A DNA stretch of 30,158 bases from positions 1 through 30,158 of the forward strand of contig JBBQPO010000038.1 in the NCBI GenBank assembly GCA_038217285.1, written 5' to 3'. Numbering within the stretch: the first letter of the stretch is position 1; the number at the start of each line of letters is the position of its first letter. Both the position numbers and the translations under genes were made by a program. This DNA is from Chthonomonadales bacterium. GTDB taxonomy: Bacteria > Armatimonadota > Chthonomonadetes > Chthonomonadales > Chthonomonadaceae. Positions 8,659-20,443 of this stretch are shown in pieces. The notes beneath the pieces are model-generated. The model saw only the letters and a list, made by a program, of their open reading frames with translations, was not told the DNA's origin and ran no database searches.

Positions 8659-9813
8659 ATGGCAATCGTGGACGTTTTGGTCCCACAGATGGGAGAAGGA
8701 CTCACCGAGGTTCGGATCCTCGAACTCCAAAAGCAGCCTGGAGATCGCATTCGGCGCGATGAGCTTCTCTACAGTATGGAGACAGACAAGGATACGCTGG
8801 ATGTCGAGGCACCGTTCGACGGCATTCTGACCGAATGGTTGACCGAACCGGGTGCCATTCTGCCTGTCGGAGCGCCGATTGCGCGTATCGAGACGGAGAC
8901 TGTGGAGGCCTCTGCTCTCTCAAACTCCACCGATACCGCGATCAAACAAGGAGAGGGAAGCAAGTCCGAGAATCCCCTTTCAGGTTCGGTAACGAGGCCG
9001 GTCGTTGTGCCGCCGAGAACGCGCGCCTACTGCCGTGAGCGAGGAATCGCGGAAGAGGAGATGCTGCGCATTCGGGCTCCTTCCGGTAAACTGATGCCGG
9101 CGGATGTCGACGCCTATCTCGCTGCAAAAACCAGTCCCACGCCGCTCTCGGCAGCAGAGTACGTGGAGTATACACTCTCCGCACAGCAGCGGACATTCGC
9201 CTATCGTCTACGCCGCAGCGCACAGGTCGTCGTCGCAGGAACGATTCGCCGCCCGGTCGCCTGGAATGCCGTCCGCGATTTTGTCGTGGCGGAACGAGCG
9301 CGCGGAGCCGAACCGCGCCCAACCGAGTTTCAGACGTTCGCCTACTGCGTGGCCCAGGTGGTCCGGGAGTTTCCGAAATTTCGGTCTACGCTGATCGGCG
9401 AAGAAGTTGTTCGCGAGTCGGCGCATATCAATCTTGGCATCGCGGTCGCTCGCCCGAACGAAGAGCTGACGACGGCGGTGGTGCCGGCGGCGGATACGCT
9501 GGACTTCGCGACGTTTCTGCAGAGCGTAAAGGCACACATCCATGCGGCCCGAAATGGCGAAGACCAGATCGATTCCGACACGCAACTGCTGTTGACCTAT
9601 CTCGGGGCGACCGGAATCGAAGACGCGATCCCTGTGCTGGTTTCGCCTGCCATCGGTATTCTGTTCCTGGGCGCCCCTTATGTGCAAGACGGCGGCCTGA
9701 AAGCGAACCTGGTGCTGACGTTCGATCATCGCCTTATCTACGGTATCGAGGCCGCGAACTTTCTGAACAGTCTCGCCGACCGCATCGCGCAGTGGAGTGG
9801 ACCCGCCGCCTGA
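8659..9813 (+). CDS. 2-oxo acid dehydrogenase E2-like dihydrolipoamide acyltransferase (divergent)
   Basis: Lipoyl domain (PQMGEG...METDK), peripheral-subunit-binding-like segment, and a catalytic domain ending LTFDHRLIYG. Confidence 0.85.
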   Translation: MAIVDVLVPQMGEGLTEVRILELQKQPGDRIRRDELLYSMETDKDTLDVEAPFDGILTEWLTEPGAILPVGAPIARIETETVEASALSNSTDTAIKQGEGSKSENPLSGSVTRPVVVPPRTRAYCRERGIAEEEMLRIRAPSGKLMPADVDAYLAAKTSPTPLSAAEYVEYTLSAQQRTFAYRLRRSAQVVVAGTIRRPVAWNAVRDFVVAERARGAEPRPTEFQTFAYCVAQVVREFPKFRSTLIGEEVVRESAHINLGIAVARPNEELTTAVVPAADTLDFATFLQSVKAHIHAARNGEDQIDSDTQLLLTYLGATGIEDAIPVLVSPAIGILFLGAPYVQDGGLKANLVLTFDHRLIYGIEAANFLNSLADRIAQWSGPAA

Positions 9814-9836: not shown

Positions 9837-9870
9837 CCACCGGCAGCAACTTTCGTGCCGGTGGCGTTTT
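9837..9870 (+). terminator. Intrinsic terminator after the E2-like gene
   Basis: CCACCGGCA/TGCCGGTGG 9-bp stem followed by CGTTTT. Confidence 0.6.
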
Positions 9871-9903
9871 GCGTAGGGATGGCGAAGGTTTGGGGGAGGA
9901 GCT

Positions 9904-17305: not shown

Positions 17306-17887
17306 CTACGGACCTGGCATACTACCGCCGCTGGGTACCGCTTCGGGTCGGACGGGCGTCTTGCCGCCCATCCCACCGCCGGAACCTCCCATGCCTCCGC
17401 CTGGACGGTTCTTTGGCATGACGGGCGCACCCCCGCCTGCGCCCCCGCCAGGACGCATCGCCGCCATTTGAGCGCGGCGCTTCGCCTGCAGGGCATCGTA
17501 TTTCGTCTGTTGGTCCGGCGAGAGGAGCGCCTTGATTTTCATGTCCGCCGCCGCCCGGTTCGCTGTCATCTGCGCCCGTCGCGTCTCACGCGACATATCC
17601 TTGGGGAACGCTTTTCTTTTGGCGGCGAGATCGTCCTGAATGGCCGAAATCTGAGTCTTCTGCGCGGGAGTCAGACTTACCTCCTTGGCCATCTCATCCA
17701 TCCTCTGGGCAGGCGTCGGACCCTGGCTCTGCGCCTGTGCCCCCCCGCCGCCGGAACTTTGACTCCTCTGCGGGCCTGCACCCGCTGGCTCCGGCGCAAG
17801 TGTGGAGCGATAAGACCGGTAGGCGAGGAAAAGTGCAATGAATACGACGGGCACCATGATGATTCCGGACAGTTTCTGTTTGTCCAT
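17306..17887 (-). CDS. Membrane-anchored Spy/CpxP-like (LTxxQ) helical protein
   Basis: N-terminal hydrophobic anchor, LTPAQ and LSPDQQ motifs, Gly/Met-rich tail. ATG lies a few bases after the rsgA stop. Confidence 0.65.
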   Translation of the reverse strand: MDKQKLSGIIMVPVVFIALFLAYRSYRSTLAPEPAGAGPQRSQSSGGGGAQAQSQGPTPAQRMDEMAKEVSLTPAQKTQISAIQDDLAAKRKAFPKDMSRETRRAQMTANRAAADMKIKALLSPDQQTKYDALQAKRRAQMAAMRPGGGAGGGAPVMPKNRPGGGMGGSGGGMGGKTPVRPEAVPSGGSMPGP

Positions 17888-17892
17888 AACGA

Positions 17893-18930
17893 TTATTCCT
17901 TTTTGAGTTCGCGCGCGAGGAGGAGGAAGCTGTCGTAACGCCGCTGGGAAACCTGGCCTGCGGCGACGGCGGCTTTCAGACTGCACCCAGGCTCGTTTTC
18001 GTGCTGGCAGTTGCGGAATCGACAGGGAGTCTCCAGCGGAACCGCGAACTCAATGAAACCGTTCTGTAGCTCTTCCCGGCTCATGGCGAGAAGCTCGAGA
18101 CTGCGCAGACCTGGCGTGTCGGCTACCCATCCGCCGGTTTCCAGAGGGATCAGCTCACGGACGGTCGTGGTGTGGCGGCCTTTGAACGTGACGAGACCGA
18201 TCTCGCCGGTATTCAGCTTGAGTTCGGGCTGAACCGAATTGAGGAGGCTCGATTTCCCGACTCCGGACGGTCCGGTAAAGGCAGAAACGCGGCCGCGCAG
18301 CGCTGCGCGTAGTTCGGTGATCCCGATGTCCTGTTTGGCGCTTGTCGCCAGCACCCTGTAACCGATCCGCGCATACTCGCTAAACCGCTCCTGAAAGGTC
18401 GCTTCGTCCGTGCGGTCTCGTTTGTTGGCGATGATCATGGGTTCGAGCCCATTGCATTCGGCGGCGACGATCCAGCGGTCGATACGCCACAGGTCGGGAT
18501 TCGGCTCGACACAGGCGAACACGATGACGAGTTGATCCAGATTGGTGACCATGGTCTGCTCACGGCCTCGAAATGCGGATCTTGCAAAGCGGGTAGTACG
18601 GGGCAGAACCTCTTCGATAATACCGGTCTGCTCATCTTCGGAGGTATAGAGAACACGGTCACCGATGGCGACGACGTCGGAATGCAGGGGTTGTTTGGCG
18701 CGGGTGACGCGGCGAGGCTGGCTGCCGCTGGAGGAGTACGTAAAATTCTTCTTAAGGTTGCCGCGCAGGGTGCAGATGACGGTATGCGGGTGAACCTCTT
18801 TGTCGGCATCGGCGTGGACGACAAATTTTCCACTATGCACTTTCAGTACCAGTCCCTCATGCGTCCCGACACGAGGAGCGGTGGCGAATGGGGAGGGTTC
18901 AATCTCGGTTACAGGCGAAGTTTTCCTCAC
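17893..18930 (-). CDS. rsgA: Ribosome small subunit-dependent GTPase A
   Basis: OB fold (IGDRV), circularly permuted GTPase motifs NKRD, GPSGVGKS, GRHTT, DTPG, and zinc finger CRFRNCQHENEPGC. Confidence 0.95.
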   Translation of the reverse strand: MRKTSPVTEIEPSPFATAPRVGTHEGLVLKVHSGKFVVHADADKEVHPHTVICTLRGNLKKNFTYSSSGSQPRRVTRAKQPLHSDVVAIGDRVLYTSEDEQTGIIEEVLPRTTRFARSAFRGREQTMVTNLDQLVIVFACVEPNPDLWRIDRWIVAAECNGLEPMIIANKRDRTDEATFQERFSEYARIGYRVLATSAKQDIGITELRAALRGRVSAFTGPSGVGKSSLLNSVQPELKLNTGEIGLVTFKGRHTTTVRELIPLETGGWVADTPGLRSLELLAMSREELQNGFIEFAVPLETPCRFRNCQHENEPGCSLKAAVAAGQVSQRRYDSFLLLARELKKE

Positions 18931-19000
18931 GATAGGTGGATTCTCCTTGTCCGCGTCGGACGCGGGCGGTACACGGTTCGAATGGGATGCACGGTGTCAT
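18899..19000 (-). CDS. Putative rsgA leader peptide (33 aa, MTPCIPFEPCTARVRR...)
   Basis: AGGAGG (19014-19009) 8 nt before ATG 19000, inside the rsgA 5' UTR. Overlaps rsgA by 32 nt in another frame. Confidence 0.5.
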   Translation of the reverse strand: MTPCIPFEPCTARVRRGQGESTYREENFACNRD

Positions 19001-19099
19001 TTTGCGGCCCTCCTTCCCAGTAGATCGGACCAACCATCGAAATGGTTCGTCGTAGGGTGTTCGTCCGTGCCGAATACGGCACGAAACGACTTCTAACGA

Positions 19100-19128
19100 A
19101 GTATACAACTGTGCTGTTTGTTTGTCAA
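19100..19128 (-). promoter_or_regulatory. sigma70 promoter of rsgA
   Basis: Minus strand TTGACA (19128-19123), 17 bp, TATACT (19105-19100). Confidence 0.8.
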
Positions 19129-19171
19129 GGCAAGGTTGCCGCCTGTTTGCCGACGCGAATCGGGCGATTTC

Positions 19172-20443
19172 TCATCCGACGTAGGGAATGACGTACGGAC
19201 CGCGGGGAATGGCCAGCACGCTCGCGTCTTGTCCGTGTCGCGCGAAGGCGGCCGACAGCGCCTCTTCGACCGTGGCGGCGGGACGCACGAAACATTCGGA
19301 GAGGCGCTCTGCCGAAATACCCCCCGCGATACAGGTGATTTCAGCCTGACGCACGACTTTTGCAAGCTCTTCCACCTGCCACTCCTCCGGCAAAAACACG
19401 TCGGGCTGGGAGATATGCGCGACGAACTGCTGCAGGTCACCGGCTTCCAGAAGGGTGCGCGTAAAGAGGGGACTGCCGATTCCCTCCGCACACTCCGCTA
19501 CAATAATGATCGTGCCTCCCTGTTTTACCACCGGCAGGGCGCCGACCATGCCCTTGACCGCCTGATAGAAGGTGGTGTCCAGAGGATAGCCCGCACAGGA
19601 GGTGACCACGATGTCGGCCCGCTCCGGCGCTTCGGCGCGGACATGCCGTGCCGCGAACTCCACCCCGGTCCTCCATGCCTGTTCCAGCTCTCCCGCGAAC
19701 ACGCCGGTGATACGGTTCGCCTCGTCCAGAGTTACGTCCAGGATCATATCCGGCGGCATCATGCGCGTGATCGCCAGCGATTCGGCATGGACCGGGTTGC
19801 CGTCGACAACTCCGTTGGTCGCCAGGGGCGATTCGAGAAAGCGGGGGCAGTGCCAGCGCTGCACGGTCTCGAAATCTGCGACCCCCGGCATGACGAGCTT
19901 GCGTCCGCCGGAGTAACCAGCCATAAAGTGCGGTTCGATCAGGCCGACCGTGATTTTCAAGTCGGCGGCACAGTAGGTCTCGTCCAGGCGAACCGGAACT
20001 CCATTAGGGGAGAGACCCAGATAGCGCTGCGCCGCGCGGTCGTGGGAATCGTGGTTGACGACGCGATAGCGGGTCGCGATCTCCTCTCCGATCAGATGAT
20101 GCAGCTCGTCGCCTTCGTTGGGACGGTGGGTGCCGGTGGCGATGAGGATGGTGATTCGCTCCGCAGGGATCCCAGCGGCCTCCAGCGTCCTCAGAATCGG
20201 CGGCAGCAGCATCTTGTTGGGAACAGGACGCGTAATGTCGCAGATCACGATCACGGCGTCTCGCCGGCCGCGAGCCAGTTGCGCCAGAGGCTGCGTTCCG
20301 ATGGGAGCGGCCAGGGCAGCCTCGACCGCCGCCTGCGGATTCGCCAGGGATGGTGCCGGTGACAGGCCCAACACTCCGATAAGGTTGGCATCCGGCAGGT
20401 CCGCGATCAGTCCTGTTTTGCCATAATCGAGTCGTACGCGCAT
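19172..20443 (-). CDS. larA: LarA-family nickel-pincer-dependent racemase/epimerase
   Basis: DITRP, ATGTHR, PHFMAGYSGGRK and YQAVKG motifs. The substrate cannot be determined from sequence alone. Confidence 0.9.
   Translation of the reverse strand: MRVRLDYGKTGLIADLPDANLIGVLGLSPAPSLANPQAAVEAALAAPIGTQPLAQLARGRRDAVIVICDITRPVPNKMLLPPILRTLEAAGIPAERITILIATGTHRPNEGDELHHLIGEEIATRYRVVNHDSHDRAAQRYLGLSPNGVPVRLDETYCAADLKITVGLIEPHFMAGYSGGRKLVMPGVADFETVQRWHCPRFLESPLATNGVVDGNPVHAESLAITRMMPPDMILDVTLDEANRITGVFAGELEQAWRTGVEFAARHVRAEAPERADIVVTSCAGYPLDTTFYQAVKGMVGALPVVKQGGTIIIVAECAEGIGSPLFTRTLLEAGDLQQFVAHISQPDVFLPEEWQVEELAKVVRQAEITCIAGGISAERLSECFVRPAATVEEALSAAFARHGQDASVLAIPRGPYVIPYVG

Follow-up and report, generated by a model that had tools for sequence, protein, structure and literature searches.

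An open reading frame overlapping the weak rsgA start in a Chthonomonadaceae leader: a tentative case of control by ribosome traffic

Does a short upstream open reading frame (uORF) that runs across the start of rsgA regulate the synthesis of this 30S maturation factor and, if so, does it act through its peptide or through the act of translation? To our knowledge, little is known about how bacteria control the levels of their ribosome-assembly factors, and our literature search found no paper describing a leader, a uORF or a non-AUG start for rsgA. Here we analyze the rsgA leader in a 30,158-nucleotide contig of a Chthonomonadales bacterium (JBBQPO010000038.1, assembly GCA_038217285.1; hereafter the window, meaning the whole stretch at its full length). 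Relatives came from a search of 31 related genomes, of which 30 carry rsgA, from the family as a whole (41 of its 42 genomes), and from public genome contigs and metagenome contigs. The genus-level set comprises seven non-redundant loci (L001, which is the window, L002, L003, L004, L016, L074 and L075), to which strain-level contigs from three public DNA runs (X2, X3 and X4) were added, each with 13-17 differences from the window over 381 nt.

The rsgA coding sequence occupies positions 17893..18930 of the minus strand (345 codons as called from GTG), is present in a single copy in the assembly and is identified by a Pfam RsgA_GTPase match (E 8e-52); its codon periodicity indicates translation from at least the first codons past the start. 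On its 3′ side, an open reading frame at 17306-17986 of the same strand encodes an LTXXQ (Spy/CpxP-like) domain with a Gly/Pro-rich tail. The GTG start called for this frame creates an overlap of about 90 nt with the end of rsgA, and the true start therefore probably lies further in. The 5′ neighbor, a gene for a LarA-like protein, ends at 19172, leaving a gap of 241 nt. A sigma-70-type promoter (19100..19128, minus strand), consisting of TTGACA (19128-19123), a 17-nt spacer and TATACT (19105-19100), matches at 11 of 12 positions and is the sole promoter-like site in 18600-19500, where shuffled sequences give 0.4 ± 0.6. Its boxes (TTGACA or TTGACG, and (T)GTATACT) are kept in all seven genus loci, including L004 and L016, in which the 5′ neighbor gene is a different one, and so promoter and leader move together with rsgA.

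From the predicted transcript start at about 19093, the leader would extend for about 163 nt up to the start codon, all of its elements lying on the minus strand. About 5 nt past this start, folding predicts a stem-loop, H1 (CGUGCCG/CGGCACG plus an outer stem, 19061..19089), followed by H2, a hairpin with a UUCG loop (19028..19051, inner part 19047-19032). The Shine-Dalgarno (SD) sequence SD1, GGGAAGGAGGG (19008..19018, core AGGAGG at 19014-19009), forms a duplex of -12.8 kcal/mol with a generic anti-SD, and 8 nt separate its AGGAGG from the ATG (19000-18998) of a 33-codon uORF, MTPCIPFEPCTARVRRGQGESTYREENFACNRD (18899..19000), that ends with TGA at 18901-18899. Relative to rsgA, the uORF is shifted in frame by one base in the 5′ direction, and it traverses a GC hairpin, H3 (18951..18965, predicted by folding and RNAalifold), the rsgA SD that H3 adjoins on the 5′ side (SD2, AAGGAG, 18943..18948) and the rsgA start, stopping 32 nt beyond the first base of the GTG (18930). 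Two candidate rsgA start codons follow SD2: an in-frame, non-canonical ATC 9 nt past it (18931..18933) and the canonical GTG 12 nt past it (18928..18930). The rsgA frame is itself open from 4 nt past the uORF ATG. On all these points of anatomy, the first-pass annotation was accurate: it had described the TTGACA-17-TATACT promoter, a leader of about 160 nt with nested and UUCG hairpins, an AGGAGG-8nt-ATG uORF of 33 amino acids, a GC hairpin immediately before the rsgA SD, a uORF that crosses this SD and the rsgA start to end 32 nt into the gene, and an rsgA frame open just after the uORF ATG.

As a whole, the leader is of ordinary stability (z -1.0; 37 of 200 shuffles fold equally well). The 78 nt at its 5′ end fold well (z -3.4 against mononucleotide shuffles), and the segment from SD1 to the start is less folded than its shuffles in the window (z +1.6) and under-structured in all seven genus loci (z +0.7 to +1.9). 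At the place of H1, a 5′ hairpin is predicted in each of the seven with a different sequence each time, and a second one, likewise built from different sequences, at the place of H2; because both shift in register across the seven leaders, H1 and H2 rest on single-sequence folds. Among the strain variants, a C>U change at 19067 keeps an H1 pair as G-U, a change at 19081 breaks one H1 pair, and those at 19037/19038 fall within the H2 loop. An H3-like GC hairpin stands beside SD2 in all seven loci, and H3 is the only helix recovered when the seven leaders are aligned (MAFFT plus RNAalifold), with 6 pairs showing mostly one-sided changes and one pair changed on both sides, in two sequences. The predicted unpaired probability of SD1 is 0.43 in the window and 0.30-0.78 over the six uORF-bearing loci, and that of the uORF AUG is low in L074, L075 and L004 (0.04-0.22). 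For SD2, no stable or alternative helix is predicted: H3 ends 5′ of it, and its unpaired probability is 0.25-0.59, so that translation of rsgA need not depend on the uORF. No Rfam family matched the window at its gathering score, and in 18700-19400 even E <= 10 brought only chance-level matches. No intrinsic terminator (GC hairpin plus U-run) was found between promoter and start in the window and five other genus loci; the leader of L004 has only a weak, irregular terminator-like hairpin, inside the uORF.

Within the genus, SD1 and the ATG are found in six of the seven loci, exactly at -145 from a conserved anchor codon of the RsgA core, and the GGAG(R)G of SD1 is likewise kept in six of seven. 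The distance from ATG to SD2 is 51 nt without an indel in all six uORF-bearing loci, whereas indels in H1 and H2 are frequent, and the uORF stop lies 26 or 32 nt inside rsgA. The seventh locus, L016, has no uORF, its SD1 being degenerate and lacking a start codon. The three strain-variant contigs keep SD1 and ATG without indels, and the ATG is thus invariant in six species and three strain variants while the adjoining bases vary. When the leader was shuffled with its dinucleotides preserved, an SD (dG <= -9) with an ATG and an ORF of 30 codons or more appeared in 7 of 1000 sequences. The uORF-only part has diverged nearly as much as the wobble sites of rsgA (0.36 versus 0.42 differences per site-pair), so the survival of ATG and SD1 is not merely a matter of low divergence; it offers modest evidence for selection on initiation itself. 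The uORF, conserved in the genus, is probably translated. No equivalent uORF was found in other genera, where only unrelated ORFs occur, of 74 codons in L008 and of 4 codons in L005. The latter, in the closest other genus, reads ATG GAG TTG GCG TGA behind a strong GGAGGGG, about 15 nt before the rsgA GTG, which its TGA overlaps (GTGA); this is a classical coupling arrangement, unlike the 33-codon uORF of the window. An alignment of rsgA upstream regions had been proposed in the first-pass annotation to look for a conserved SD-ATG and conserved EPCTA codons, and of these the SD-ATG held within the genus, in the six loci, and failed outside it, while the EPCTA codons are not conserved.

The peptide shows a different pattern from its start site. 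Pairwise differences in the uORF-only part (codons 2-17) are distributed over the three codon positions as 82/99/81, that is, without codon periodicity, compared with 152/37/53 in the rsgA-only part just downstream, and the synonymous fraction of codon differences is 0.13 in the uORF frame versus 0.10 and 0.22 in the other two. The stretch that reads FEPCTA in the window is LIPCTD, LILIRD (twice), LVPRND or LVPFLS in the other species of the genus, and even at strain level F7L and T11A occur in all three variants, and C4R, V14A and N31D in one. Judged from these substitutions, the uORF peptide is without selective constraint. The same would be expected of a meaningless ORF, which counts against the reading preferred below.

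The rsgA start region, AAGGAG-N9-ATC-GTG, is the most conserved element of the leader. In local alignments of the window leader with other genera, only the SD2-ATC-GTG region beats shuffles (L041, L083, L008, L084 and L088), and the region alike across genera can be written as CGCGGAC-AAGGAGAAUC.A.C.AUCGUGAGGAA, the 3′ arm of H3 together with SD2 (CGCGGAC..AAGGAGAA) also being alike. With an SD2 of -8.3/-7.8 kcal/mol against -12.8 kcal/mol for SD1, and AUC or GUG against AUG, the rsgA start is weaker than that of the uORF. The ATC is predicted to be unpaired with a probability of 0.81 in the window, compared with 0.25 for the GTG; the range is 0.62-0.93 for the ATC in all seven genus loci and 0.02-0.53 for the GTG in the six that have it, L016 having TTG at this position. 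In other genera, the GTG position is occupied by GCA, GCC, GCG, GAA, GAG, GTC or ATA, which look like ordinary second-codon changes rather than start-codon swaps; L088, on the other side, has AAC GTG, so a GTG here can serve as the start.

Across the family, 40 genomes were evaluable for the rsgA start by a fixed candidate-codon rule, one locus being cut by a contig end, and an in-frame ATC, ATA or ATT stands behind an SD in 25 of these 40. Nine genomes from 6 genera have ATC/ATT/ATA behind the SD and no canonical codon with an SD dG <= -4.5, the criterion used for canonical codons; in 12 genomes from 7 genera, the window included, ATH (ATC, ATT or ATA) is directly followed by GTG or TTG; four genomes from 4 genera have ATH behind the SD and a canonical codon with an SD elsewhere; and 15 genomes from 10 genera have a canonical start only. 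L013, a member of the third class, clearly starts at a strong ATG, and its ATH is probably spurious. L014 has an in-frame TAG within the SD, and from there to the conserved GIVLK strand no ATG, GTG, TTG or CTG occurs; the next ATG would delete that strand. An AUC start of rsgA is therefore likely in the ATH-only genera; in the window, where the GTG directly behind the ATC makes the start ambiguous, we put the chances of AUC at about even. A classifier based on the strongest SD in the region was dropped in favor of the candidate-codon rule, being confounded by SD1 and by purine-rich codons. A far-upstream in-frame TTG behind GGAGG in L006 and L008 was rejected as an unlikely rsgA start, since it lies inside the U-run of a terminator-like hairpin, has an out-of-frame counterpart in L039, L041 and L015, and would be followed by an unconserved reading. 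Outside the family, the best-SD start candidate of Oscillospiraceae rsgA loci (L048-L066 and L080) is mostly TTG, several with an in-frame ATT directly before it, and weak rsgA start codons may thus reach beyond Chthonomonadaceae.

A start of this kind recalls infC, for which a non-canonical AUH start is generally expected, IF3 discriminating against such starts, less so in the cold (PMC5499595). In the same genome as the window, infC (L105:1231-1233, contig C128) has GGAGGGG, an 8-nt spacer that contains an in-frame TGA, and then the ATC, and infC starts with ATC, ATT or ATA in all 29 evaluable family loci (L106-L135 and its own), with ATC in 20, ATT in 5, ATA in 3 and ATC one codon earlier in 1. 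Like infC, rsgA here has a good SD with an AUC in frame behind it and, in some cases, a stop codon of the same frame within the spacer. Unlike infC, the window's rsgA has a GTG directly behind the ATC; in 9 of the 40 family genomes, no credible canonical alternative is present. The autoregulation of infC works through an AUU/AUC start discriminated by IF3, whereas IF3 dependence of rsgA is a hypothesis. Immature 30S subunits of E. coli lacking RbfA or KsgA escape IF3 scrutiny and non-AUG initiation goes up, which is not the case in E. coli lacking RsgA (PMC6868393).

Taken together, our preferred reading, tentative and with a probability of roughly 0.4, is that ribosome traffic on the uORF, irrespective of the sequence being read, gates a weak rsgA start. 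In this scheme, rsgA would be transcribed from its own sigma-70 promoter with a leader of about 163 nt, in which H1 and H2 are followed by a comparatively unfolded stretch bearing the strong SD1 and the AUG. The uORF would be translated, the act of translation rather than the peptide being what matters, and its ribosomes would melt H3, cross SD2 and the rsgA start, and stop 32 nt inside rsgA. RsgA output would then depend on how ribosome loading at SD1-AUG competes with that at SD2, a dependence expected from the weakness of a start with AUC 9 nt or GUG 12 nt behind its SD. The net effect would most likely be damping, as SD1-AUG is much the stronger site, although some hand-over of terminating ribosomes to SD2 may occur. 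This gating is weighed down by the absence of the uORF from L016 and by the low unpaired probability of the AUG in L074, L075 and L004, and also by a stop placed 32 nt into rsgA, much deeper than the overlaps of 1-4 nt usual in coupled genes (PMC3592434).

The leaders of sister genera bear on what SD1 may be. At nine loci from at least seven other genera (L005, L006, L008, L039, L041, L078, L083, L087 and L091), a promoter is followed by a leader of about 300 nt that contains a conserved hairpin, GCCCCGG...CCGGnGGCG, and then UUUUGCGUUU; in most of the nine, this terminator-like hairpin lies about 60-110 nt before SD2. When the nascent leader is folded without the 3′ arm of the hairpin, a purine-rich, SD-like strand (for example CCGGGGAGG, GGAAGGAG or GGAGGAGGGAG) pairs with the 5′ arm in eight of the nine loci, the flanks of this helix being completely different between genera. 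The layout is that of an SD-containing antiterminator opposed to a terminator, a candidate rsgA attenuator not described before. RNAalifold-type alignment of these leaders recovered the terminator alone, with 9 pairs, none of which has a two-sided change, and not the antiterminator helix, and Rfam gave only chance-level matches at E <= 1 in the nine leaders. Moreover, the motif CCGGNGGCGTTTTG occurs at 35 places in 19 of 42 family genomes, compared with 13 for its reversed control, and only 6 of these places lie before rsgA; the terminator type is thus generic in the family and not a signature of rsgA. The window itself has an ordinary intrinsic terminator with the same CCGGTGGCGTTTTG 3′ arm at 9837-9876 of the plus strand, after the ORF at 8659..9813. 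No terminator of the GCCCCGG type was found in the rsgA leaders of the window's genus. Three further genera (g7, g13 and g2) have short rsgA leaders of about 40 nt. In L014, L098, L018, L012 and L093, a -10 box, GGTATACT, precedes the rsgA start by no more than about 40-50 nt, so that leader length and design vary widely within one family.

The long leaders of the nine sister loci lend some credit to a somewhat unlikely alternative in which SD1 is a functional 30S-binding, SD-like site, either an mRNA stabilizer or the relic of an RNA switch, and the ORF behind it is incidental, tolerated and non-regulatory. No start codon consistently follows the SD-like motifs of these loci, L016 retains SD1 in degenerate form without one, and the unconstrained peptide would agree with an incidental ORF, as would the predicted pairing with the terminator 5′ arm with a switch-derived SD. 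Yet the homology of SD1 to the sister motifs is not significant (local alignment against shuffles), the invariance of the ATG amid variable neighbors speaks against an idle start codon, and an AUG placed 8 nt behind a strong SD in an open region should lead to translation, useful or not.

A broader idea is that the synthesis of RsgA may follow how well ribosomes or initiation perform, through start-site competition or initiation fidelity rather than through peptide arrest. This is an inference, to which the infC-like ATC behind SD2 and the antiterminator/terminator leaders with their SD-like strands in sister genera lend indirect support, and it draws on the IF3 and immature-30S findings cited above. 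A bolder form of it, which we hold to be unlikely, is that Chthonomonadaceae rsgA is wired like infC: an IF3-discriminated AUC start would be combined with a leader SD whose occupancy lowers output, either through the overlapping uORF (in the window's genus) or through a broken antiterminator that lets the terminator form (in sister genera), giving feedback from the pool of competent 30S and IF3 to RsgA synthesis.

That the uORF instead serves as an activator seems quite improbable. Its ribosomes would open H3, terminate 32 nt downstream, be recaptured by SD2 and reinitiate at AUC or GUG, so that RsgA would rise with uORF translation. H3 adjoining SD2, with both inside the uORF, suits this idea, as do the 4-codon ORF of L005, which ends in GUGA on the rsgA GUG, and E. 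coli reporters in which reinitiation provides about half of second-cistron translation and doubles the output of the infC AUU site (PMC3592434). Against it, a stop 32 nt past the start would require recapture by backward movement, SD2 is not covered by H3, and reinitiation efficiency falls with distance (PMC3592434). Least credible, to the point of being very nearly dismissed, is the proposal of the first-pass annotation that the uORF is a sensor, either by nascent-peptide arrest at FEPCTA (ermC/SecM/TnaC type) or by a prfB-like programmed +1 slip into an RsgA fusion: the anatomy of an SD-led uORF in a structured leader would fit, and the fusion frame is open behind the uORF ATG in five of the seven genus loci, but FEPCTA varies between species and strains in a uORF without codon periodicity, an ermC-type switch is contradicted by an SD2 that no alternative helix buries and by a uORF that overruns the start, and the slip is contradicted by stops in the rsgA frame 5′ of the start in L004 (the GTG has one just two codons ahead of it), by an upstream extension that is not conserved as protein and by the lack of any SD-like or slippery element before the uORF stop in the window.

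If the uORF and the AUC/GUG start truly gate RsgA, this leader would offer a simple and testable example of how initiation capacity can tune a factor of 30S maturation; with an incidental uORF, it is an ordinary long 5′ UTR. The leader designs of the sister genera hint that control through the rsgA leader may be recurrent.

Several known systems resemble parts of this arrangement. The STAB-SD of cryIIIA is a 5′ mRNA stabilizer, a strong SD-like sequence far 5′ of the gene's own start. The window shares with it a strong SD-like sequence far upstream and a leader with 5′ hairpins, and differs in having an AUG at optimal spacing behind SD1, so initiation would be expected there and not the mere parking of 30S subunits. 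Another relative is ermC, a ribosome-mediated leader attenuator. Both ermC and the Listeria hflXr leader rli80 (PMC6310831) have, like the window, a short SD-led ORF in the structured leader of a ribosome-related gene, and the sister genera add a terminator-like hairpin. Unlike ermC and rli80, the window has no conserved leader peptide, no terminator and no helix sequestering SD2, and its uORF does not end ahead of the main start but overlaps it. In overlapping-cistron coupling or interference, as here, ribosomes of the upstream ORF traverse the downstream SD and start; the overlaps typical of coupling are 1 or 4 nt (AUGA, UGAUG; PMC3592434 for both points), whereas the upstream stop of the window lies 32 nt inside the downstream gene and its upstream ORF has 33 codons and is unconstrained. 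Set beside these systems, a probably translated, overlapping uORF before a weak and possibly non-canonical rsgA start would represent a new form of a known type of leader and uORF control.
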